From a virus: DNA of 64,000 nucleotides. Within the stretch, counting starts at the first letter, position 1. Every line of letters starts with the position of its first letter. Of the stretch, positions 3,851 through 64,000 are shown piece after piece. The stretch covers positions 45,418 through 109,417 of IMG/VR virus record IMGVR_UViG_3300036818_000127. One strand, given 5' to 3'. The translations under genes and the position numbers were made by a program. The notes under the pieces are model-generated. The model had not been told where the DNA came from, ran no database searches, and was given only the letters and a program-made list of their open reading frames with translations.

Positions 3851-3903
3851 TTTGTTTTTCCTTTGCTATTTAACTAACTTGATTAACTTCTTGATCTACT
3901 AGA

Positions 3904-3932
3904 AGTATATCATATCTTCCATAAACTGTCAA
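3904..3932 (-). promoter_or_regulatory. conserved early promoter, copy 1 (TTGACA-gtttatggaagatatga-TATACT)
   Basis: -35/-10 with 17-nt conserved spacer. An inverted partial copy lies at 3948-3964. Confidence 0.85.
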
Positions 3933-3967
3933 GGGTTTGAAGGGCAATTTATGGAAGATATGCTCTT

Positions 3968-6900
3968 TTACCATAAATTGGTTTGAACGGCTGCTGCTAC
4001 CTTTTTAGCTTTCCGTGTCCTCTTCAAGGCATCTCGCTTAGCCCTCAGAGCTGCCCAGGGGTCCTGAGTAAGTGCTACTGGTATGATTATCATGGGCTCA
4101 ACTGATCCCTTCAATGGCTCTGTGGTAATGTCTCCTGCAAGTGGTATCTCCATATCCTCCTGCTCAGGATCGGCATCGGCTGTGATGTATTCATTCCGTG
4201 CAAGGGCTGCTTCCTCAGATGCTTTGAATTGCCTCTGGAGTTCTTCGGCCTCGGCCATCAGGTCGGCTGTGTTATTTTTCCCGCTATCAAGGGCTTCCTT
4301 GACCTGTCGGGCAAGGGCAATTGAGAAGCTACTATCGCTGTCCCCTTCATCTACTCCAAAGGAGACAAGTCCCTCTCCTGGTAGCTGGCCCTCAACCATA
4401 AAGGCAGTTTCCATCTTCCGTGACATTAATAACAAGAGACGCTGCTCCATTGTCGGGTAGACTAATATGATGACCTTGGTGTGCTTTGTCTGCTTTGGTC
4501 TATGTATCCTTCTAAAGGATTGCCGCATCTGGGATGTCGATGTCGGGACCTCAGAACAGATAATCGTGTGGAAGTCTATTAGGTCGAGACCTACTTGGAC
4601 CAGGGCGCTATTGCAGATAAGAACATTGCATCCGTTCTCGACATGCTTCTTGAGTACTGCTTCCCTTCCTAATGTATTACCTGATCTCAGGATAGCAACC
4701 TGGGGGATGTTCCCATTGCGAGGGCGGACGTGAGTCTCTATCAGGGACTTATAGCGGGGCTGGATATCATGCTCCCCTGTATTTTCGCAGTAGATGATAA
4801 CCTTTCTGTCCTGCTCCAGCTCCCCTTGGATAATGTCAATTATCCTTTGCTCTTTGGGATAGATCTCTGACTCATCGAGCTTCCTAGCCGTTCCAAGAAT
4901 GTAGCCTGTCTTTTTGACTGAGCAGACAGTCTCTTCAAAGGGCATATTAGGGTAGCGCCTCAAACATTGGAACCAAGAACCTAATGCCCTCTTATCCCCT
5001 AGTACTAGCATTGCAGCTAACTCAGCAGTGATTGTACTCTCAAACGATTTATATGCTTCTTCCAGGGGTCCCGACATTGGAATGATGTCTACCTCTTCAG
5101 AGTAGGGAGGTAAGTACGGGGCCACATCTTTAAGCTCCAGGAAGGCAGATCGTTCAAACAAAGGCGGAAGGCCATTCGGTGAGAATGCGGCCATCTCATG
5201 TTCTTCTCCACGACCGCTGGACTTTTTCTTGCTTATAGCTCCATCTCCGCCGCTATCTAAGTCATCCTTCTTTTCCTTAATCACAGTTTTTCTGGCTCCG
5301 TACCGATCAACCCATTCCCTCATGCCATCATAAGAGAATTGCTGGCGGACATCTGGATTAATACTCCAGGCGAAGGGGAATAATGATGAGGCATACCCAT
5401 TACATAAGGTCCCCGTTAGACCTAAGTAGGATTCGCATGCTCCCATCAGGGAACGTCGGGCAAAGTCGAGGGCTGTCCCCTCCTTCCCTTGGTGGATCTC
5501 ATCGCTGATCAGGAGTTTGAAGAAACCTGAATGAAACTTTCTAATATAGTCGGCCACGCTGAACCGTCGAAAGCTGGTATCCTTGACAGTCTTAGGGAGA
5601 CTTCCAAGGCTGTCTGGAAGAGGGAGGGCAACTACTGCATCGCCACTTCTCAATACTGACTTAGGCTCAAAGTCCTTCCCTGTCGTGTACTGCCATAAGG
5701 GACCACCGCAGGAACCGCACCATCTCTTTTTGTGCTTTTTAGCACTGATCCACAATTCTTGTTCAGTGACGTAAGCTCCTTCATCCTCATCCATCTCTTC
5801 TTCTATTGAAGAGAGGGCTTTTCCATTTCGCTTCTTGCGTGCTATCTGATCCTTTTTTCTTTTGTAGTCAGGATTGCTTTTCATTAAGCGATCAATGCGT
5901 GCCTGATCCTTTACAGGAGCAAAACAGCTCGGGCAGCATGGTGTCAATCTAGGAAGTTTCGTTTCCTCGTCATGCTGTACTGCCACCTTTCCATTCGCAT
6001 CTAGTGTTCGCATTGGGGAAAGCCGATATGCCAACGTCCAGGCCATACTCAACTTGGCCGTCCCATTAGGGATAATGACTAGGTGACATGGCTTCTGAGG
6101 AAGTGGGCGACCATGCAATTTTGCTTCATCATATTGCTGCCGCCAGTCCTGGAGTTCATAGTCAATCCTTTTGATAACCCTCTCAATACATCCGACTGCC
6201 GACAGTTTCTCGCCTCTCCAGAATGGATCAAATTGCCTTAGCTCTCTTGACTTCTCAGGAGTATCAATTCTCTGAACAACAATCGCATGGACATTTGGGA
6301 TAGTATCCTCTGCCTCGCGTTTCCATTTGTACGCGATGATCTCTGGGACCATCACGACAGCTGGGGAAAGCTCAATCTTCTTAGCTGTTGAGGGAAGCAT
6401 GTCAGCACAGCCATTCAGGTCCATATCCCCTAAGAAGAGGGTGGATAGGGATAAGTAGGTCTTGCCAGTCGCCATCTCGGCGATCTCACCGACCCTATTC
6501 ATAGGAGCATGATCTTTCCCTCCGACCATTGCATTCACAATAGCAAGGATAAAGCCTTTCTGTCTACCGAGCGGTTGACGTAGCATCCGAGAGAAGGCGG
6601 CGTTGGCCCAGGGGACTTGAGACGGGCTGTGATAGAGCGGGGGATTGCTCTCTAACAGCTTCTCTGTTAGGGCTCCACCAAAGTTATCCAGGAAGGAACG
6701 AAGAGACATTGTTTCATGGGGAATGCTGAGCATCCCGACCATTGGCCCTGTTTCAATCCTGATAAGCTGACCGAGGGTATCACCTTCTGTCATATCGATA
6801 CACCAGAGGGATGACTCGAAGCTATCACGTTTCTCTGTGATGATATTCTCTTCATCTTCAGAGACCTTGGTCACTTTGCGCTTTCTTGAGAAGCCCTTTA

Positions 6901-30434: not shown

Positions 30435-31664
30435 ATGGAATCTAATCTTCTTGCAGAGATGCAAAATGATGGGTACAGCGGAAAGCGTAAGGCAACAACG
30501 AGAGGTGGGGAATGGCATGGACCTTGTATCTTGCCAGGGTGCAGCGGACTCGGCAAGGATAGATTAAGGGTACAGCCTAATCACGGACCCTATGGGTTTT
30601 TTGAATGCAGAGTGTGTAGCGAGAGCGGCTCACTAGTGGACTACCTAATACTCAAGAGGGGACATACTAAGCACCAAGCCCTTGTACAGGCAGGTTGGAA
30701 GCCCAAGGATGGGAGTGAGCCGCAATTTCTTCTCCCTAAAAATGTGCTCACTGGTGATGCCTACCTAAGACATTTAGCGCCGCCTCTAGTATGGCAGGCA
30801 CAGGCAAAGGTCTTTGTTGAATACTGCACTAGTGTCCTCTGGGGGGATAAAGGACAACAAGCATTAGACTATCTGCGGGGACGTGGGCTAACAGACGAGA
30901 TCATCAAGATGGCACAGATAGGATACAATCCTGCAAGGTTACGCCAGTCGGCGGAAAAGTGGGGGCGCAAAGAGCATGGATTTCTGGCGGCAGGTATTAC
31001 GATCCCATGGTTTGTCGGGGAAGGTGAATTGTGGAGGGTGACTATCCGCGATGAGAAGATAGCAGATGGCGAGGGGCGCTACAAGCAAATAGCAGGCAGC
31101 TCTAATGGGCTCTATCTCTCTTTTACCCTCAGCTATGATCGACCCGTGGTATTAGTGGAAGGGGAAATCGATGCACTTTCTATTGCTCAGGAGTGTGGAC
31201 ATGATGTTTCAGTATGCGCAACTGGAGGAACCATCGGGAGTCACTCAGCTAGATGCCTCGGCGCACTTGCAGGGAAGGACCTTGTACTCATTGCATTTGA
31301 TGCTGAGGAAAGAGGCGATAAAGCATCAGATTGGTGGCTCAACCGACTAGAGAATGCGCAGCGGCTCCGACCGTTCTGGAAGGATGCCAATCAGATGTTG
31401 CAGGAGGGTGTGGACTTGCTAGAGGATTGGATACTGCCGAGACTTGAGTCTATTCTCTATGGTCCTAGTCCTATACCTACTCCCGAGAGCAGTGATGTAT
31501 GCAAAGGATGTGGGTGTCCTTTCCCGTCATTTGAGGGCTGGGAACCTGAGAATATTCCAATGGATGATGTTATGAACTTTGACCCTGAAGATGGTGAAAT
31601 GTACTGTGAAAAATGTAGGCCAGGCCTTTTTGAACAAGTATGCGAATTAGCACAAGCATCATAA
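30435..31664 (+). CDS. DNA primase (Zn-binding + TOPRIM)
   Basis: EWHGPC..C/CRVC zinc region, ALDYLRGRGL, VLVEGEIDAL, AFDAE, KDAN. Confidence 0.85.
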   Translation: MESNLLAEMQNDGYSGKRKATTRGGEWHGPCILPGCSGLGKDRLRVQPNHGPYGFFECRVCSESGSLVDYLILKRGHTKHQALVQAGWKPKDGSEPQFLLPKNVLTGDAYLRHLAPPLVWQAQAKVFVEYCTSVLWGDKGQQALDYLRGRGLTDEIIKMAQIGYNPARLRQSAEKWGRKEHGFLAAGITIPWFVGEGELWRVTIRDEKIADGEGRYKQIAGSSNGLYLSFTLSYDRPVVLVEGEIDALSIAQECGHDVSVCATGGTIGSHSARCLGALAGKDLVLIAFDAEERGDKASDWWLNRLENAQRLRPFWKDANQMLQEGVDLLEDWILPRLESILYGPSPIPTPESSDVCKGCGCPFPSFEGWEPENIPMDDVMNFDPEDGEMYCEKCRPGLFEQVCELAQAS

Positions 31665-32368
31665 GGAAAGAGCAAGATGAGCAAACGAAAGAATTTACAC
31701 CTTCTTAGGGTTGGAAAGATAAAACAATCCTTTACAGGGTTGATTGAGAGTATCTCTGATCAAGACCGCTTATGGTTTGAGCAACATCCTAGTAAAGATC
31801 AGTATGTGCGTGATTATAAGGCTGGAGAGTTTAAAGATCAGACACCCCCTATGAATACACAAGTTCTAGTCACAAAAGTTAGTGCAGATGTAAGAGTCCG
31901 CACAGTTATCCCCTATGATGTTGCGGATTTATCTCAGTCAGGTATGTACATATTCATACCTGAGGTAGAAGAAATAAGAGATAAGATGGGCCATATAAAG
32001 TTTGAAGAGTAGCGTGTCATATAGCCAAAGGATACAAGGAATTGATAACAAGAGAGCAAGCACTTAGTGCACTAGCGCAACACTATGATTTATCGTTAAT
32101 GTATGAATTAGAACCAAGTAGGACAGAGTTTCTAGTTGATTTAGCATTTGAGTGTATTGCAATGGAAGAGTCAAAACAGTCTGCTCTTGAAGGTCTCAAG
32201 ATGTATGCAACTCGACTCGTTGGCCGAAATGCTATATGCCCAGAGCTTCGGACAGCCGCATATGAGAGATTACTATATAGCTATCTCGACTGGTTGTTAT
32301 CACCTTCAGAGTTGGAGGGTATAGGTCAGGAGCAAGCCTCCTAGTGGAAATGTGTAGAGTATAGCTGC

Positions 32369-32397
32369 TTGACAGTTTATGGAAGATATGCTATACT
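32369..32397 (+). promoter_or_regulatory. conserved early promoter, copy 8 (before DNA polymerase)
   Basis: exact consensus. Confidence 0.85.
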
Positions 32398-32426
32398 TAA
32401 AAGAGAGATAAGAGAAAGGACTTCTG

Positions 32427-34442
32427 ATGATAACAAAAAAAGAGAAAGACCTCGAAAAACTGGCACTATGGAATAACCCGATGAGAGCAGCTTTTGAGCC
32501 ACGAACAGAACGTCATATTGTGGCGGCCCCCTCGAATGTCGAGACTACTGAAGAAGCTGTCAACCCTGCTGACCATCCTGTTATAGAATCGCACTCTTCT
32601 GTATGTGTCTCAACTCCAGAGCAGGTCCATGATATTGCACAGCAACTTCAAGGCAATGCTACCTATGTTATGGACCTGGAGACGACAGGGTTAAACCCTC
32701 GACAGAACAAGATCATTACCATAGCATTCGGTACTCCTGATCAGGTCTACATTATTGATGTGAGAAGGTTTCATTCAGCTTCAGAGAGTCTTCGAACTCT
32801 CTGGTGCGAGGCATTGCAGAGGCTCTTTCACCGAGAGGATATTGTGTGGGCTGGGCATAACCTGAAGTTCGACTGGTCTTTCGTGGCTGTCCAGTTCGGG
32901 GTACGGATGAGGCGGGTGTATGACACGATGATAGTAGAGAAGCTAATTCACAATGGCGCGAGGGTTTCTGCATCCCTCAAGAATGCCGCCGCTCGCTATG
33001 GTATTGCTGTCTCGAAGGAAGAGGTCAACTACTTCATTGGTCTGGACCAACGCCCGAAAGAGTGGTCAGCGCCAATCCCTCCTGCCCAGATCACCTATAT
33101 TGAACAGGACATCATTGTCCCCCACCAGCTTATAGCTTCCCAGCAGGTAGAAATAGATAGGCAGTCTTTGGGCCAAGTTATTGAACTTGAGAATGCTGCC
33201 CTCCCAGCAATAGCTTCTATTGAAGTCAATGGGCTACTAGTGGATGTTGCAAGGTGGCGCCATATCCTGGAGGCAAAGCTGGCCAGGAAAGAAAAGTTAG
33301 AAGGGGAATTGAAATCCGTCTTATCAAATGCTCTTGCAGATAAGGCAGAGCAGGATACTGACGGTAAACTTTTTTCAGTACGTCCCGACATCCATATCAA
33401 CCTAGGCTCGCGCGATCAGCTTCTCTCAGCACTGGCATGCCTTGGTGTACGGGTAGATGATACGAAAGCCGAGAGCCTAGAGGAAGTAAAGGGTCAACAT
33501 GATTCTGTGGGCCAGCTATTAGACTGGAAGAACCTTGAAAAGTTCATTACTGCTTTCGGAGACTCTGTTCTCGGGAAAGTTGAAGAGGATAGCCGCATCC
33601 ATGCCACCTTTGAACAGCTAGGAGCAGTGTCTGGTCGGATCATCTGCCGAGATCCAAACCTCCAGCAGATACCTAAGTCCAACAATCATGATGAGGATAT
33701 CCGTAGTTGCTTCGTGGCCCCATCTGGATACAAGTTCTTAGTAGCGGACCTCTCTAACATCGAACTGCGCATCCTGGCCGAGGTATCTGGTGACCCTACC
33801 ATGCTCCGCTTCTTTGATGAAGGAAAGGACCTTCATGCAGAAACAGCGAGGCTTATGTTCAAGCTTGGCCCTGATGTTGATACCAAGAAGCACTTGATCA
33901 ATGGGGTAAAGGCTAGGGATATTGCTAAGACCATCAACTTTGGGATTGCCTATGGTATGGGTCCTGGAGGGCTGGCGGCACGTATCGGAGTTGATCCCGA
34001 TGCAGCTAAGAAGCTTCTCTCAACATACAAAGAGACATACAAGGGAGTAGTCACATACCTAGACCAGTCATCACGGGAGGCAATTAATCAGAAGTATGTC
34101 ACCTCCCTCTCCGGCAGGCGCAGGACCTTTCTCCCAGAAACTCTTGCTGATAGGCAGTCACGCGGAGAGGCAGAGCGAGCTGCAAGAAACCACCCGATCC
34201 AGGGAGCCAATGCCGATATCCTTAAACGAGCATTGGCACTACTCTCTGAACAATTGCCAGAAGACGTGCATATAGTGCTTACTGTACATGATGAAATTTG
34301 TTTAGAGGCACCAGATATTAAAGTAGAGGAAGCAACCAACATCTTAAAAGAGTGCATGATGCAGGCATGTAGGAAGTTTTTACACAGGGTAGAGATACCA
34401 GAGATTGACGTATTAGTAGCAGGATACTGGATCAAGGGTTAA
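32427..34442 (+). CDS. polA: family A DNA polymerase (3'-5' exonuclease + polymerase)
   Basis: ExoI DLETTG, ExoII HNLKFD, motif A DLSNIELR, motif B AKTINFGIAYG, motif C TVHDEI. Confidence 0.95.
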   Translation: MITKKEKDLEKLALWNNPMRAAFEPRTERHIVAAPSNVETTEEAVNPADHPVIESHSSVCVSTPEQVHDIAQQLQGNATYVMDLETTGLNPRQNKIITIAFGTPDQVYIIDVRRFHSASESLRTLWCEALQRLFHREDIVWAGHNLKFDWSFVAVQFGVRMRRVYDTMIVEKLIHNGARVSASLKNAAARYGIAVSKEEVNYFIGLDQRPKEWSAPIPPAQITYIEQDIIVPHQLIASQQVEIDRQSLGQVIELENAALPAIASIEVNGLLVDVARWRHILEAKLARKEKLEGELKSVLSNALADKAEQDTDGKLFSVRPDIHINLGSRDQLLSALACLGVRVDDTKAESLEEVKGQHDSVGQLLDWKNLEKFITAFGDSVLGKVEEDSRIHATFEQLGAVSGRIICRDPNLQQIPKSNNHDEDIRSCFVAPSGYKFLVADLSNIELRILAEVSGDPTMLRFFDEGKDLHAETARLMFKLGPDVDTKKHLINGVKARDIAKTINFGIAYGMGPGGLAARIGVDPDAAKKLLSTYKETYKGVVTYLDQSSREAINQKYVTSLSGRRRTFLPETLADRQSRGEAERAARNHPIQGANADILKRALALLSEQLPEDVHIVLTVHDEICLEAPDIKVEEATNILKECMMQACRKFLHRVEIPEIDVLVAGYWIKG

Positions 34443-36385: not shown

Positions 36386-36396
36386 ATGCATCAAAA

Positions 36397-36655
36397 ATTG
36401 CAGTACCCTCAAGGCGGGTCGATGGATTGCAACTCGACAGGAATGCGCGGCCAGGTCTCTAGCATGATCAATTGCAGTACCCTCAAGGCGGGTCGATGGA
36501 TTGCAACTGGAATATCCTCTCCAGTAGATATCAACATACATCGGATTGCAGTACCCTCAAGGCGGGTCGATGGATTGCAACTTAGAAAGTCATTCGAGAG
36601 ACACTTCCCTGATTTTGTATTGCAGTACCCTCAAGGCGGGTCGATGGATTGCAAC
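36397..36655 (-). CRISPR. CRISPR mini-array: 4 identical 37-bp repeats, 3 spacers of 37 nt
   Basis: ATTGCAGTACCCTCAAGGCGGGTCGATGGATTGCAAC at 36397, 36471, 36545 and 36619. Minus orientation is inferred from the leader-like region with TTGACA on the right and the terminator on the left. Confidence 0.95.
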
Positions 36656-36826
36656 TGCCGCAGCATATAAATCTTGAAAGACCCTACCACTCAACTTTTA
36701 TCGCATGAGCCCTCTCTTGATCTTCTCAGCGCGGTGATTTCTTTTGTTTTGCTAAGGAAAAGCATACCAGATCTGTCAAGTTTCGCAAATTGGTTTTTGT
36801 TAAAATATGGCGTCGATTTGCGAGGA

Positions 36827-37304: not shown

Positions 37305-37336
37305 AAAGAGGGATAGTGTAGATGCTATCCCTCTTT
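37305..37336. terminator. intrinsic terminator, paralogous to 36348-36385
   Basis: aaagagggatag-tgtagatg-ctatccctcttt. Confidence 0.75.
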
Positions 37337-37337
37337 A

Positions 37338-37600
37338 AATATACCCTCAGATGGATCGATGGAAATGAAAAGTATTAGTCACCTAATTCAGTTGCAGTAT
37401 CCTCAGATGGATCGAAAAGTAAATCTGAACTATCGACTAAAGTAGTTGCAGTACCCTACCAACGGGTCGAATTGGTTAAAGTAGAGAGTATACCCCTATA
37501 CAGTTGCAGTACCCTCTAACGGGTCTAAGTGCAGAAAGCGAGTATCAAACATATGAATACCGTTGCAGTATCCTAGCTCGGATCAACAGAGCTAGGATAC
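37338..37600 (-). CRISPR. degenerate CRISPR-like array: ~5 diverged repeats with short spacers
   Basis: GTTGCAGTA(C/T)CCT...GG(A/G)TC at 37391, 37445, 37503 and 37562, plus a remnant at ~37341. Period is 54-59 nt versus 74 nt in the canonical array. Confidence 0.75.
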
Positions 37601-59227: not shown

Positions 59228-59270
59228 AAAAAGAGGCTTACTCATTGGGGGAGTAAGCCTCTTTTTTTTA
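59228..59270. terminator. bidirectional terminator after the cas12-like/wHTH operon
   Basis: aaaagaggcttactc-loop-gagtaagcctctttttt. Confidence 0.8.
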
Positions 59271-59594
59271 CGCATTGTATCTCTCTCTACTTGGGAGAAG
59301 CACATATCCATAATCTTGCACGCAATATACATAAAAGCCGGTCCATATGATTTTGCGTCGAATACGGTTGATATGCTTTTCCATCATTACCCTCGCATTC
59401 CTGTCAGCATCGCGGTTATAGACAATGCGTGCAAGATCATCATAAGTAACCGGAGTGCCATTCCTCAGGGGATAGATCAATCGGTACTCAGTCGGCGTGA
59501 AAGGTATGCCTCTACCCTCTGAGACAAGCGCATACCTTTGACTGCTCCACGGTACTCCCTTGGCCCCAGCGAGCTTCTTAAACTCTATTTGCAT
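59268..59594 (-). CDS. stand-alone OmpR/PhoB-type winged-helix (Trans_reg_C) protein
   Basis: FTPTEYRLIYPL..GTPVTYDDLARIVY...MEKHINRIRRKI...VQDYGY; starts 12 nt after the Cas12-like stop. Confidence 0.8.
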   Translation of the reverse strand: MQIEFKKLAGAKGVPWSSQRYALVSEGRGIPFTPTEYRLIYPLRNGTPVTYDDLARIVYNRDADRNARVMMEKHINRIRRKIIWTGFYVYCVQDYGYVLLPSRERYNA

Positions 59595-59606
59595 CTTCTT
59601 CTTTAC

Positions 59607-61298
59607 TCATGCTTTAAATCCTCGTGCAAACTCTTCCCATGTTGTCCGCTCTGCTTCTGGTATCTCCTTTTGCTTCTGCTTCGATCTGAGCTGTAAGAAG
59701 GGAAGCTTGCGCACAATATTGATACCACTCTGCTGTCCTACATCTGTTGTGTACCCACATTCAATGCAATGAAAGAGGTTCTTATCTTCTTTGTCGAAGT
59801 TCTCTTTGCTCACACAGCCACATTGCGAACAAGTGGAAGCCGTGTAAGCACTGCTGACTTTACGGAGTGGTGTTAGACCAGCAATGTCTAGTTTGGTCGC
59901 TAGGAGGTCCTGGAGCTTCTGATATTGCCTTCTCTGGAGTATACGGTTGAAGGCTTTCCCCTTCCCTCCAACACGCTTTTTCGGGGCAATGTAGCTTAGA
60001 TCTTCTACGATCACCTGGGACTGATGTGTACGGGCCATCTCGACAATACTATTAGCTACTTGGTGGACATGGCGGTCTGCAATCCGTGCGCGTCTCCTAT
60101 CCCCTTTCGTTGTTTTTCCCTTTTTCTGCTTGATAGCTATATTCTTTTCAATCGCACCAATTAATCCGTTTAATTCATCGGTACTAACATTGAAAGTTTC
60201 AATGACTTCCTTCCCGTCCAGGGAAACGACAGCCCCAGATGCTAAATAAGAAATAGATCGGTCAATACCTAGGTAGGTCGCTGGCTTTATTCGCTCAGGT
60301 CTGGGGAACTGGAAGGCGACATGGAGCTGGTACTTATCTCCATATTTCATCAGTTTAGCAGACACAGGCCAAGCAGGCTTTACACTAGTATCGCCTGACC
60401 TCTGCGGAAGGAAGGCATGTTTAGTAAAACGTAGCATGTTCTCATGCCACCTTCCCATTTCTAGAGGGACAAGAATGGAGCGAGTCCCATTTCCAAAGGA
60501 CCTGACCTCCTGATACCTGCCCATTCCAAGATGGTAATCCCCCAAGATAGTGTGAGTACTTGTACTGTACCGCTTCAGTCCTGTTTTATGTTCCTGGAAA
60601 CCTTTGTTCCGCATGTAAATATTCTCAGGTTCACGGATATCGATGTATTGTCCATCTATATCGATCCTTCTTCCATGATTGGACAATTCTCCGATAACAT
60701 ACAGTCTCACATAGAATGTGCGCGTCTCTGGATTGTAGAAAATACGGAATCCCTGATCAGGCATGCTATTCCCGAAAGATAAGGGCACCAGCCCTCGCTG
60801 TCGTGTGCGGAGCAGTTGGTCGCGGAGTGTATTCTCTTCTTCTAGGTCATCTGAGATAGTCCGCAGACCTTCTAGTGCGGCCTCTCGCTTTGCATCACGG
60901 TTATCTTCTTCAACCCTGTTAGGGTAGGATGGCTTCTGCTTTTCTGTCAATGACAGTTCAGCGAAACTCAAGAGGGTGCTAGCAATATCTGACTTCATCG
61001 ATGCACGCAGCCGGGCCTCTAGAGGTTCAAGTAACTGGTCCAGATCTGGTATCTTGTTCGTTCGGAAAAGAGCAGTTTCTAATGTCCTAGCATTCGTTAG
61101 CTCTTCTCCATTGCTCTCGCGTACTGCAAATACAGCCATTGCATGCAATTCCTCTGCTGTATAGCTAGAGAAGAAATCAAGGATTGATGTGTAGGCTCTT
61201 GTGTAATTCTGCAATGCCTCATCAAGCACTGCTCTGATGTGTTTCGTGGGGTTGTGGATGGTGAACACTGCTGTTCGGTGAATGTGTTTTCCTGGCAT
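59607..61298 (-). CDS. Cas12/TnpB-family RNA-guided protein (563 aa, Cas12f-like size), RuvC-III apparently degenerate
   Basis: RuvC-I YLGIDRSI, bridge helix, RuvC-II VIVEDL, AYTASTCSQCG..FHCIECGY zinc finger, RuvC-III TDVGQQSGINI. Confidence 0.9.
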   Translation of the reverse strand: MPGKHIHRTAVFTIHNPTKHIRAVLDEALQNYTRAYTSILDFFSSYTAEELHAMAVFAVRESNGEELTNARTLETALFRTNKIPDLDQLLEPLEARLRASMKSDIASTLLSFAELSLTEKQKPSYPNRVEEDNRDAKREAALEGLRTISDDLEEENTLRDQLLRTRQRGLVPLSFGNSMPDQGFRIFYNPETRTFYVRLYVIGELSNHGRRIDIDGQYIDIREPENIYMRNKGFQEHKTGLKRYSTSTHTILGDYHLGMGRYQEVRSFGNGTRSILVPLEMGRWHENMLRFTKHAFLPQRSGDTSVKPAWPVSAKLMKYGDKYQLHVAFQFPRPERIKPATYLGIDRSISYLASGAVVSLDGKEVIETFNVSTDELNGLIGAIEKNIAIKQKKGKTTKGDRRRARIADRHVHQVANSIVEMARTHQSQVIVEDLSYIAPKKRVGGKGKAFNRILQRRQYQKLQDLLATKLDIAGLTPLRKVSSAYTASTCSQCGCVSKENFDKEDKNLFHCIECGYTTDVGQQSGINIVRKLPFLQLRSKQKQKEIPEAERTTWEEFARGFKA

Positions 61299-61386
61299 GG
61301 CATGCCCTCCTTCAATCTGGTTAGCATCTATAATACCCTATCTTTTACGTCGGAACATGAAAAATTGTTCATAATTGGATTAGGTA

Positions 61387-61415
61387 TTGACAACTTGATT
61401 AGCGGCTATTATACT
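61387..61415 (+). promoter_or_regulatory. sigma70 promoter for the ncRNA/array, divergent from the cas12-like gene
   Basis: TTGACA(61387-92)-17 nt-TATACT(61410-15). Confidence 0.85.
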
Positions 61416-61421
61416 CTGCTC

Positions 61422-61925
61422 TGTAATCTTCGGATTGCTTGGGCTCGTGAGCTACGGCTCGGTAGTTGCAGGCCCAATCCCTGGGAGAGTGCCGTATGAC
61501 TTCTGATTCCCTGTTGAGGGATAAGAAGCGAGTCATGGTCATATAGGGTACATTCGTGTGCCTTGTGACTATGCCTTCTCTGATTCCCGATATCGGGAAA
61601 AGGAAGCTTGACACCTTCTGGAGAGAACAACGCCACAAAACCGGAAACGGTACTCGCTTCGCGGTGGCTCCCTTTGGGCCAACTCTCATGTGCAGCACGA
61701 TGAATGAGCAGGGGATGTTGCAACTCTGCTAATCTACTGATGCTTTGATGGGATACACTGCTACAGCCTGGCAGTGGGACGGCTCACTCTCATGTTGCAT
61801 TAGAACTTGTTGAGACGCTCCTTTACAACTGAAGGAATGAAGCCTTTCAGTATTTGTTGCATTATGCTGAAATGCGGTTCTACCTGCTCATAGCTAGTTG
61901 TTGCATAGTTGATGAGCAGGTAGGT
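61422..61925 (+). ncRNA. structured tracr/scout-like RNA leader
   Basis: Dense hairpins with UUCG and GAAA tetraloops (gtaatc-ttcg-gattgc, agggtaca-ttcg-tgtgcctt, accg-gaaa-cggt); four hairpins with UGUUGCA loops; no credible ORF. Confidence 0.75.
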
Positions 61926-61939
61926 GTCTATAAGAGAGT

Positions 61940-64000
61940 CTGTGCAGCTATGTAAGAGGATATATAGCGCAGCATTGCTTGTAACCAATAAGGATAGATG
62001 ACAACATAGAGTATAGGCTGTCGACTGCAACCCGTTACTTGATATGTCAGAGTGTAACTTAGATGGATCTATGCAACCACGGGCTTTTATTTGCAATTGC
62101 AGCAAGCAATATGGCAAGATGCAACAAATGGACAATTTATATGATCCTGCAACCATCAGACAGGGCTACAGCCTGCTCGCTAACCATGCAACCTTGGGAG
62201 AGTTCTGATCGCAATACTGAAGTAGTAGGTGATAATTGCAAGAGGCTGACTGGAAGAGGGAGGGCGCAGCTAGTGCAACCTCAAGCAGTATCAGGGATGC
62301 AACTGATGTGATTGGAGAGGAATGCAGCAACTAGGCACTCCCATCGAGATGCAATACTGGCGATCTATCCATGTAACCATCTTCGTCGGTCCTGCATGCA
62401 ACGTTCTTGACCCTTACTGCAACAAGCAGTTCGCAATCGCAACTTGTATGGTTTAGGCTAGTATTATCCATGTAACTATTGAACGCTGTCCGGCAATGAT
62501 GAGCAACGGTGAAAGGCAAAGTCTAGTGTGCTGCAACTATCTTATAGTCTAGACTAAATGCAATGAATATCAAGGTAAGCCTCGCAACCATTTCAATGCA
62601 ACTAAGAGAAGTATAGGTAGTATAGTGCAACTCACAAATGACGGCAACATCAAGAAGTCACAGTATGCAACCAAGCTACGCGGGACCTTGCAACAACGGG
62701 CAATAGCTATATGCAACAAGAATGTCATATTGGACAGTGCAACAACGAGTAGAAGATTTGCATGCAGCACAAATGAAATACTACATAGCAACATATGGAC
62801 CAGCGATCAAGGGAACTGCAACAAGAGGGCGTTGTCTGGAGGATGTAACACAAGGAGCTAGATAGCGATTGCAACTTTCATAGAGTCACGCAACTGTAGT
62901 AGATGCAATGGTACAAGCTCGTTCACAACTAACATGACACTGCAACAAGCAAGAGACACTGCAACAAAAAGGATATAGGGACAATTGCAATAATCTACGA
63001 TGGCCCCATGCAACCTGATAGAGGAAGATATTCAATAATTGTAACTGAAACCTCCGCAACTATAGAATATGCATTCTAGACTAAGAATTATGCAACTAGT
63101 TGGTTGCTAAGGCATAATGCAGCTATCAGCGGCTAGATATGCAACTTACTTTCAACACACTCTTGCAACATCCATCTCGACATCTCAATTCTATCAATGC
63201 AGCGACTTTGATGTTCCTTACATGCAATGAGTAGAGAAAATGCAACAGCAAAAGAGTGAAGAACGCAACTATCATTGACCAGCTATGCAACTATGGTTCT
63301 CATATCATAATAGTTTATACGCAACTTCTGTAGAGGCATCATGCAACATGTATTGAAAGCATTGCAACCTCATCTGACAGCATCCTGATGCAACATGATT
63401 TCTCTTTGTACATGCATCTCGCAACAACTGGCAATGACATCTACAACGGTAGAGGAATGGGGCATAGCATGCAACTCAGGCAAGTTATCACTGCAACATG
63501 GGGAAGTCTTGCGATATCAATGCAACCAGTGTTCACATACGTGGAAGGAATGCAACATGTTCAATAATATGCAGCCTCAATGGATTTTATGCAACTATTA
63601 GGTAAATAGAGAGCTATGCAACTGATTAACCCTATTCACTCAATATGCAACAAATAGGTGGTACTGCAACACTGATGAGGGTTTTGCATCATCATACCCA
63701 AGATGCAACTATGGCTTTTTGAGGCAACTACGAACATGTCAAATATATGTAACGATCAAGAGAGAACCTAGTGCAACCATGGGCGGGCATGCAATGAGTA
63801 GACATAGCAACAACTGAGTGCAACATTCTTGATCGAGAGAAATGCAACATAAGGGTTATCATAGCAATAGCCAAGCATGAATGATGCAACCATGACAGAG
63901 CAAGCAACACACATGTGGTACATTGCAGCATTGGAAAGCAACTAGAGGGGAAATAAGCAGCAGGTAAACGGAATAATAGATGCAACAATATCTGTAGGAC
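61940..64000 (+). repeat. mini-repeat guide-like array: (A)TGCAAC every ~20-30 nt with unique spacers; runs off the window end
   Basis: About 43 exact TGCAAC plus ~40 single-variant copies by eye, all on the + strand, period not a multiple of 3, no long ORF. Confidence 0.85.

Follow-up and report, generated by a model that had tools for sequence, protein, structure and literature searches.

A Cas12f-like protein of a soil phage, its candidate scaffold RNA and arrays of 5–6-nt repeats

The phage locus and described type V systems

In type V-F CRISPR systems, whose effectors are known as Cas12f or Cas14, the repeat of Cas14a1 starts with GTTGCA and ends with TGCAAC, and many V-F and phage loci need not include the adaptation genes (cas1, cas2 and cas4). 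We analyzed a locus with the same repeat ends in the last 64 kb (64,000 nucleotides [nt]; hereafter, the window) of a 109,417-bp soil phage record, IMG/VR IMGVR_UViG_3300036818_000127, in which a gene for a Cas12f-like protein lies beside a predicted scaffold resembling a trans-activating CRISPR RNA (tracrRNA) and a field of repeats only 5–6 nt long. CheckV completeness of the record is 100%, and its ends are given by IMG/VR as direct terminal repeats; since the 127-nt overlap between the ends is the size left by an assembler working at k = 127, we treated the genome as circular or circularly permuted. Positions are those of the window unless the genome or another locus is named. The core of the locus consists of the following features:

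59607–61298, minus strand: gene for the Cas12f-like effector, 563 amino acids (aa) (Pfam PF07282, Cas12f1-like_TNB, E 1.6e-8)
61387–61415, plus strand: sigma-70-type promoter TTGACA-17-TATACT, matching 11 of 12 consensus positions and divergent from the effector gene
61420–61681, plus strand: tracrRNA-like scaffold of ~260 nt, predicted from alignments, a consensus fold and minimum free energy (z = −4.4)
61682–61989, plus strand: transition zone of ~300 nt with a half repeat, GTTGCA motifs and a terminator-like hairpin
61990–64000, plus strand: mini-repeat array, with 78 handles (GCAAC or G·U-compatible variants) in the window

Several properties are shared with type V-F systems: a small effector that has a zinc ribbon and whose TnpB-like fold matches AsCas12f at a Foldseek E of 1e-16, canonical 36–37-nt repeats in the present genome that start with GTTGCA and end with TGCAAC, a separate tracrRNA-like RNA, and a guide located 3′ of the handle. 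By contrast, most of the array here retains just 5–6 nt of repeat, the spacers are irregular and measure 12–24 nt, the third RuvC aspartate has been lost and there is no cas1. A preliminary description made from the letters of this stretch had proposed a new kind of RNA-guided system; that label does not stand, as the locus is better described as a derived Cas12f-like type V CRISPR system whose arrays start with ordinary 36–37-nt repeats.

In scoutRNA systems a non-coding RNA recognizes the CRISPR RNA by a few base pairs beside the spacer (PMC11127173). The 5–6-bp pairing of GUUGC(A) with (U)GCAAC that is predicted here, and supported by covariation, resembles this arrangement, which is used by Cas12c and Cas12d. 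The effector, however, is Cas12f-like, with its best structural and sequence matches to Cas12f and Cas12e, and the Cas12c/d systems keep full-length regular repeats and active nucleases. Another likeness is to dCas12f-sigmaE, TldR and Cas12m, RuvC-defective exapted effectors that are thought or were shown to bind without cutting; some dCas12f genes are found near CRISPR arrays, and helix-turn-helix (HTH) genes are common neighbours (PMC13472631; PMC10691335). These effectors carry C-terminal truncations, occur in linkage with either a sigma factor or a target gene, and work with one or few single-piece guides (85–105 nt) or with omega-RNA-like arrays whose repeats exceed 60 bp, whereas the present system has a separate scaffold, a 6-nt repeat and ~140 units and retains both the zinc ribbon and the C-terminus. 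No sigma factor gene adjoins the effector gene, and the winged HTH (wHTH) gene that follows it is not conserved. Instead of a single-piece guide RNA of the TldR or dCas12f-sigmaE kind we found a separate scaffold and then about 100 units; judged by its sequence, a half repeat at 61711–61724 could be the sole candidate for a fused first guide. The exaptation series reported for Cas12f runs from RuvC-III loss through array minimization to omega-RNA-like arrays with repeats of >60 bp (PMC10691335). By analogy, the present system appears to parallel that series in the opposite direction, toward a 6-nt repeat, a separate scaffold and a ~100-unit array.

Phage mini-CRISPR arrays, solitary repeats and RNA anti-CRISPRs are also CRISPR-derived repeats in viruses without adaptation genes, but they comprise one or few full repeats that use or sabotage host Cas proteins; unlike an RNA anti-CRISPR, the arrays described here are far longer and lie beside the phage's own effector and scaffold. 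TIGR-Tas systems (PMC12045711) likewise have non-canonical tandem guide arrays in phages, but with regular 36-nt dual-spacer units and a Nop-domain Tas protein, neither of which occurs here.

We favour, with moderate confidence, the reading that this locus is a phage-borne derived type V-F-like system in which the arrays would have been reduced to the tracrRNA-pairing part of the repeat, the scaffold would load any unit and the effector would bind DNA without cutting it. The strong promoter would drive a single long RNA comprising the ~160-nt scaffold core, a few repeat remnants and about 100 units, each of the form (A/G)A-UGCAAC followed by a 12–24-nt spacer. Within this RNA, the unpaired GUUGC(A) of the scaffold would act as a 5–6-bp anti-repeat comparable to those of scoutRNA systems and of the Cas12f pseudoknot, pairing with the GCAAC handle immediately 5′ of every spacer, so that after processing and assembly of the ribonucleoprotein the effector and scaffold could load any unit, the loaded guide being roughly 14–20 nt long. 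Because the third RuvC aspartate is lost, the complex would most likely bind matching DNA without cutting, and might thus form a multiplexed roadblock or repressor on its presumed targets, host or rival-element DNA. The reading draws on features observed in silico, namely the architecture, its conservation, covariation, wobble-restricted handle variants, a spacer-length optimum, the protein fold and the state of the catalytic residues.

Arrays, scaffold and handle

The mini-repeats are concentrated on one strand of one region: GCAAC occurs 58 times on the plus strand of 62001–64000 and once on the minus strand of that interval, compared with 0–6 copies (about 2.5) per 2-kb bin elsewhere. This density agrees with the field of more than 2 kb punctuated by (A)TGCAAC that had been noticed at the outset, except that the array runs past the window, crossing the contig junction into genome positions 1–~790, and comes to 98 handles over ~2.7 kb, its spacers having a median length of 19 nt. 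Two other accounts of the field were rejected. A coding or recoded gene is ruled out by unit spacings that are not multiples of 3 and by the lack of long open reading frames (ORFs), and tandem duplication as the origin of the array is ruled out by Tandem Repeats Finder, which reports nothing within it. Two further arrays are present in the genome:

genome ~33.1–31.4 kb (31400–33150; L002:5400–7150), minus strand, outside the window: second scaffold and array, recognized by leader homology
36396–36657, plus strand: canonical array in which the four repeats and their spacers alike measure 37 nt, the repeat ending in ...GGATTGCAAC, which carries the TGCAAC handle

The leader of the second array is 74% identical to 61380–61760 and has GUUACA as its anti-handle. 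The head of this array consists of about six 36-nt repeats with ~35-nt spacers and its tail of ~40 GCAAC units, the repeat shortening stepwise from GGGGAATGATTGCAAC to ATGCAAC and then to GCAAC, and at its end stands a terminator made of a 15-bp hairpin (z = −5.5) with a run of U after it. Together, the first and second arrays hold about 140 handle units, and the whole 109-kb genome contains two scaffold copies and one Cas12-like gene. The initial proposal of one scaffold followed by many guides is supported in silico by the architecture of relatives, the covariation, the G·U-restricted variants and the peaked spacer lengths; the second scaffold with its own array, outside the window, is an addition to it. 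The effector and scaffold described above probably served the canonical array at 36396–36657 as well. At 37330–37600, ~700 nt beyond that array, lie four or five half repeats in degenerate form (GTTGCAGTAYCCT...); neither place is adjoined by a scaffold copy.

A metagenome scan returned eight loci, of which the five close ones (L003–L006 and L009; effectors of 66–70% identity) represent two distinct arrays. All five have the same layout, a divergent consensus promoter with identical hexamers, the scaffold, full repeats and a field of 40–50 irregular TGCAAC; a search of homologs for the same flanking architecture had been suggested as a check. The array of L004, L005 and L009 contains six or seven full 37-nt repeats (GTTGCAAT...ATTGCAAC) with ~36-nt spacers, and that of L003 and L006 three (GTAGCGGC...GATGCAAC) with ~35-nt spacers. 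Since L006 is syntenic with this genome beyond the array, the array occupies the same slot in both, with different content. Among the more distant loci, the array of L010 (28% identity, with an intact aspartate–glutamate–aspartate [D-E-D] RuvC triad) is regular, its 37-nt repeat occurring nine times, L007 has 32-nt repeats, and in L008 (34% identity, N at RuvC-I) a homologous scaffold is followed by ~25 degenerate 18-nt repeats (GGGCGYGTGGRATGAGGR) with 13–37-nt spacers and a terminator. Repeats of 36–37 nt are thus seen at the head of the second array, at 36396–36657 and in L004, L006 and L010; the main array has a 5–6-nt repeat and irregular spacing. A 24%-identical D-E-D homologue, annotated as hypothetical, is encoded by 182 cultured Salinibacter ruber M8 phages, with a regular array of ~7 repeats (30-nt repeat GTCGAACTATACCCTTTGGGGTGCTGAAAG) in an unannotated gap beside it; the region was observed at 3860–6400 of Salinibacter phage 4_12 (L133, OR896275.1). 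These phages could serve as tractable cultured relatives.

Directly past the array end in L004 (L004:101–1378, minus strand), and also in L005, lies a gene for a TnpB of the insertion sequence type (425 aa) with its own upstream region. L004 and L005 are 98.5% identical, and all 59 differences fall within the first ~330 nt of the aligned stretch, affecting the promoter, the 5′ end of the effector gene and the initial hairpins of the scaffold; the remaining scaffold, the array and the TnpB gene are identical. This distribution points to a sharp recombination boundary at the scaffold start, beyond which the identical arrays of L004 and L005 gave no signal of microevolution.

The scaffold at 61420–61681 folded better than each of 200 shuffles. 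Its conserved part is ~160 nt long, and an insertion of ~76 nt is lineage-specific. Of the ~500 nt of structured RNA that had been proposed, only these ~260 nt hold up, the remainder being the transition zone. In the five close scaffolds the 5′ part consists of a UUCG hairpin and then a 7-bp stem around a second hairpin and the unpaired GGUAGUUGCA, within which the anti-handle GUUGCA lies (61465–61470); the 3′ part consists of a long-range stem, GCCGUAUGA, more hairpins and CCCUUUGGG (hairpin). The stems keep their pairing through compensatory changes between loci, the 7-bp stem, for instance, occurring as UUGGGCU/GGCCCAA, CUCGGCU/GGCCGAG, CAGGGUG/CGCCCUG and UAGGAGU/GCUCCUA. Rfam holds no family for the scaffold.

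Between scaffold and array, the transition zone carries the half repeat GGGGATGTTGCAAC at 61711–61724, four copies of GTTGCA (at 61717, 61794, 61856 and 61900) and a terminator-like hairpin at 61828–61851; the corresponding zone of L006 (L006:3960–4235) has five GTTGCA and no TGCAAC. GTTGCA(T/A)T is the complement of the handle, and its 4–5 copies stand in zones nearly devoid of TGCAAC, whereas the array proper has 43 TGCAAC and no GTTGCA. By their sequence, the motifs of the transition zone may represent full repeats that decayed to their 5′ halves, or extra anti-handles.

In each clade, the unpaired scaffold hexamer, which sits after (G/C)UA, and the array handle are reverse complements of each other:

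this genome and L004–L006: scaffold hexamer GUUGCA, handle or repeat 3′ end UGCAAC
L007 and L008: scaffold hexamer CCCUCA, repeat 3′ end UGAGGG
L010: scaffold hexamer GUCACA, repeat 3′ end UGUGAC, with the caveat that this scaffold is divergent and that a second GTCAC lies within the 290-nt intergenic region

The stems enclosing the hexamer covary as well. In silico, the scaffold has the hallmark of a tracrRNA, an anti-repeat, with a complementarity of only 5–6 bp.

Four loci provided 7.6 kb of mini-arrays for an evaluation of the handle itself; in them, TGCAAC was observed 160 times with 2.3 expected (~70 times expectation). The enriched variants of its core (positions 2–6) were TGCGAC (24-fold), TGTAAC (19-fold), TGCAGC (12-fold) and TGCAAT (6-fold), which are exactly those that keep G·U pairing with GUUGC(A), together 84 observed and 8 expected. 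The sole non-wobble core transition, G2 to A, which gives an A·C mismatch, was observed 5 times with 2 expected from background and about 18 expected on the assumption of equal frequency for all five core transitions. Core transversions were at background, and the first base, T, was less constrained (CGCAAC, 12 vs 0.9).

These patterns bear on two other explanations. TGCAAC might be a DNA site bound by a protein such as the wHTH and serve as an iteron or a partition, packaging or decoy site; a DNA-binding gene does adjoin the locus, and OmpR-type domains bind direct repeats. We consider this highly improbable given that the wHTH is absent from relatives carrying arrays, that the motif is the 3′ end of a CRISPR repeat and complementary to a covarying unpaired scaffold hexamer, and that the variants allowed are those that G·U pairing would tolerate, which holds for a single strand. 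The field might also be a decaying, functionless remnant of captured ordinary CRISPR arrays, an explanation suited to arrays that begin with full repeats, look progressively eroded, are irregularly spaced and have no adaptation module. However, 74-nt units cannot erode into units of about 25 nt, the strongly enriched handle varies only by pair-preserving changes, arrays of 1.5–3 kb stand in the same genomic slot of diverged phages with differing content, and the promoter and terminator are intact, all of which makes decay improbable.

The effector and its RuvC site

Both minus-strand genes of the preliminary description, the 563-aa Cas12/TnpB-family gene and the wHTH gene, were confirmed as ORFs with Pfam domains, although the wHTH domain scores slightly below the cut-off. 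The AlphaFold model of the effector (mean predicted local distance difference test score 86) gave its best Foldseek matches to AsCas12f and OsCas12f (E 1e-16 to 1e-13), followed by CasX, CasPi, TnpB and dCas12f; identity to solved Cas12f proteins is only about 12–14%. When the sequence was aligned to solved chains, the RuvC/TNB part alone aligned, dCasX being the best match. The zinc ribbon (CxxC...CxxC) and the C-terminus are kept. In this alignment D346 and E432 are present at positions mutated in dCasX, and the column of the third catalytic aspartate is occupied by G521 (T-T-D-V-G in the effector vs H-A-D in CasX), with D519 two residues upstream. The effector therefore lacks an intact D-E-D triad, but the earlier term RuvC-degenerate applies to motif III alone, two of the three residues being kept. 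As modelled, the protein has a Cas12f-like fold with one lost RuvC aspartate.

An alignment of 24 family sequences placed this loss in a wider context. At RuvC-III most members have H-A-D, whereas the four closest relatives (P0001–P0004) have D/N-V-G/Y, the third aspartate column being Y in P0002–P0004. Other losses affect RuvC-I (N or H in P0021–P0024, N in P0014) and RuvC-II (G in P0015). A wider search of 1.84 billion representative sequences yielded a core family of ~20 representatives at E < 1e-100 and a set of 177 at E < 1e-30, in which D-E-D is found in 81 of 111 full-length sequences and the clade with N/H at RuvC-I recurs. The alignments indicate that catalytic-residue loss happened several times in this family. 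Among the few loci compared, those with D-E-D (L010 and the Salinibacter phages) have canonical arrays, and those with a substituted RuvC (L008 and the present clade) have shortened, irregular repeats. Two effector homologues sit in metagenome-assembled genomes (MAGs) labelled Ktedonobacter or Ktedonobacteraceae, the sole hint as to the host.

With the same RNA architecture, the effector could in principle still cut or nick, by way of D519 or through partial activity, and the locus would then be an ordinary phage-encoded system of interference against rival phages or plasmids that differs in its shortened repeats. Such a role would be in line with the intact D346 and E432, with the position of D519 two residues before the lost aspartate, with the prevalence of D-E-D in the wider superfamily and with the precedent of phage-encoded type V systems that target rival elements (bioRxiv 10.64898/2026.04.20.719267). 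We nevertheless regard an active nuclease as unlikely. P0002 and P0004 have N in place of D519, which leaves no conserved acidic residue in the subclade; the lost column aligns with the aspartate that was mutated to make dCasX; other catalytic residues were lost independently in sister clades; and no protospacers were found in the related or other phages searched.

Spacers, targets and neighbouring features

The lengths of the 268 spacers are not those of randomly placed handles: 168 measure 12–24 nt, with 57 expected, and 25 are shorter than 10 nt, with 114 expected. Spacers are A-rich, and G is rare as the first base after the handle. A few recur between diverged phages, the shared sequence beginning immediately after the handle, GCAAC-CAAGAATGAACTGCG being common to the second array and L004, GCAAC-TAYGGCTTTTTGAGG to the first array and L004, and a ATGTTCAAT... 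family to all three lineages. Cross-phage pairs that differ at no more than 2 of the first 12 nt numbered 7, whereas column shuffles gave 1.8 (never more than 5 in 300 shuffles). To a modest degree, the shared spacers speak for selection acting on spacer sequence, or for homologous units having been retained.

Spacer length and sharing also help to judge whether the arrays are RNA decoys, in which the ~140 handle copies, possibly together with a dead effector, would soak up host Cas12f or tracrRNA and thereby disable a type V-F system of the host, and the segments between handles would be filler. Camara-Wilpert and colleagues reportedly described in 2023 phage RNA anti-CRISPRs made of solitary repeats, and a decoy would be compatible with a phage without cas1, with handle-only units, with spacers too short to be guides and with the failure to find targets. 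Yet the system is self-contained, its own scaffold covarying with its own handle in three clades; effector, scaffold and array remain linked; spacer length has its optimum at 12–24 nt, whereas a sponge would favour the minimum; and some spacers are kept between diverged phages. On balance, decoy function seems quite unlikely.

A number of observations weigh against the reading that we prefer, that of an array of guides for non-cutting DNA binding. About 10% of the spacers, those shorter than 10 nt, are too short as guides. The mapping of spacers to targets that had been suggested as a check gave nothing: exact k-mer matches to the phage's own genome were at shuffle level, related loci contained no targets, matches to cultured phages (INPHARED) were at chance level, the three canonical spacers searched as 24-mers had 0 matches in IMG/VR, and a blast search of the array against 401 sampled genomes from the phylum of a MAG titled Chloroflexota was at chance level, although this last test is weak, the top 2 matches per genome having been scored. 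No match to cas1 was found in the complete 109-kb genome, where controls matched as expected, which leaves the origin of the units unexplained. All four wobble variants of the handle are transitions, and mutational bias contributes to their enrichment, but it leaves the deficit at G2 unexplained. The correlation between RuvC state and array type comes from 4–5 loci. Lastly, D519, lying near the lost aspartate in the sequence, may permit residual catalysis.

The sole self-match found by blastn-short pairs 62243–62265, a unit preceded by the variant handle TTGCAAG, with 5607–5629 (22/23, E 0.001), within the ORF of a 1332-aa DUF6094-methyltransferase/helicase, the unit being antisense to the mRNA. 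With k-mers at shuffle level and this single 22/23 match, a self-targeting regulator was rejected; no guide matches to promoters of the phage's own genome were found. The recurrent matches in the 401 genomes trace to one conserved, ribosomal RNA (rRNA)-like locus; four of the genomes are unpublished, and nothing claimed here depends on them. At 62085–62105 the array matches 20 of 21 positions of a locus that is 94–96% identical over 2 kb among several Chloroflexota genomes; that locus is probably rRNA, and we read the match as a chance one multiplied by conservation. Among 201 genomes of one Chloroflexota class we found generic TnpB only, and the scaffold pattern, searched against IMG/VR and GTDB genomes, gave only chance matches, none with an effector or a TGCAAC field.

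The literature that we searched, not exhaustively, contained no description of such mini-repeat arrays, and the array seems to be more compact than any natural guide-RNA array reported to date. If its units are real guides, we would know of no natural CRISPR repeat shorter than these 5–6 nt, and the array, fitting about 100 guides into 2.7 kb at about 25 nt apiece, would be among the densest natural guide arrays. In that case, a tracr/scout-type RNA could shrink a repeat to its anti-repeat footprint, loss of the nuclease would be linked to lost array regularity, and the question would arise of how spacers form without Cas1–Cas2. The locus would also offer a natural design for highly multiplexed guide arrays of the CRISPR interference type to be used with miniature effectors, and it would mean that repeat-based CRISPR finders systematically miss such loci. 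Only tentatively do we suggest that a soil phage of lytic size, with a nuclease-dead Cas12f-like protein, a single scaffold RNA of short complementarity and ~140 ultra-compact guides (each a 5–6-nt handle and a 14–20-nt spacer), might bind many sites simultaneously in host or rival-element DNA for RNA-guided, genome-wide takeover or exclusion and turn over its arrays independently of Cas1/Cas2.

Two features lie downstream of the effector gene:

59268–59594, minus strand: gene for a stand-alone OmpR/PhoB-type wHTH protein of 108 aa (Pfam Trans_reg_C, E 1e-5)
59231–59268, no strand assigned: GC-rich hairpin between runs of A and T, situated where the effector–wHTH operon ends, the plus side being scored as terminator-like

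The wHTH gene starts 12 nt after the effector stop codon, and its product scores 26.0 bits with Trans_reg_C, slightly below the cut-off of 26.2. By tblastn, no counterpart was found in L003, L004 or L005, the three related loci with downstream sequence. This absence rules out the wHTH as a conserved partner, and its earlier inclusion as a component of the system is withdrawn; as judged from these sequences, it appears to be an accessory limited to this genome. At the far side of the locus, a convergent ORF of 229 aa (L001:636–1325, minus strand), a homologue of which flanks the L006 array, shares its 3′ end with the final ~150 nt of the array.

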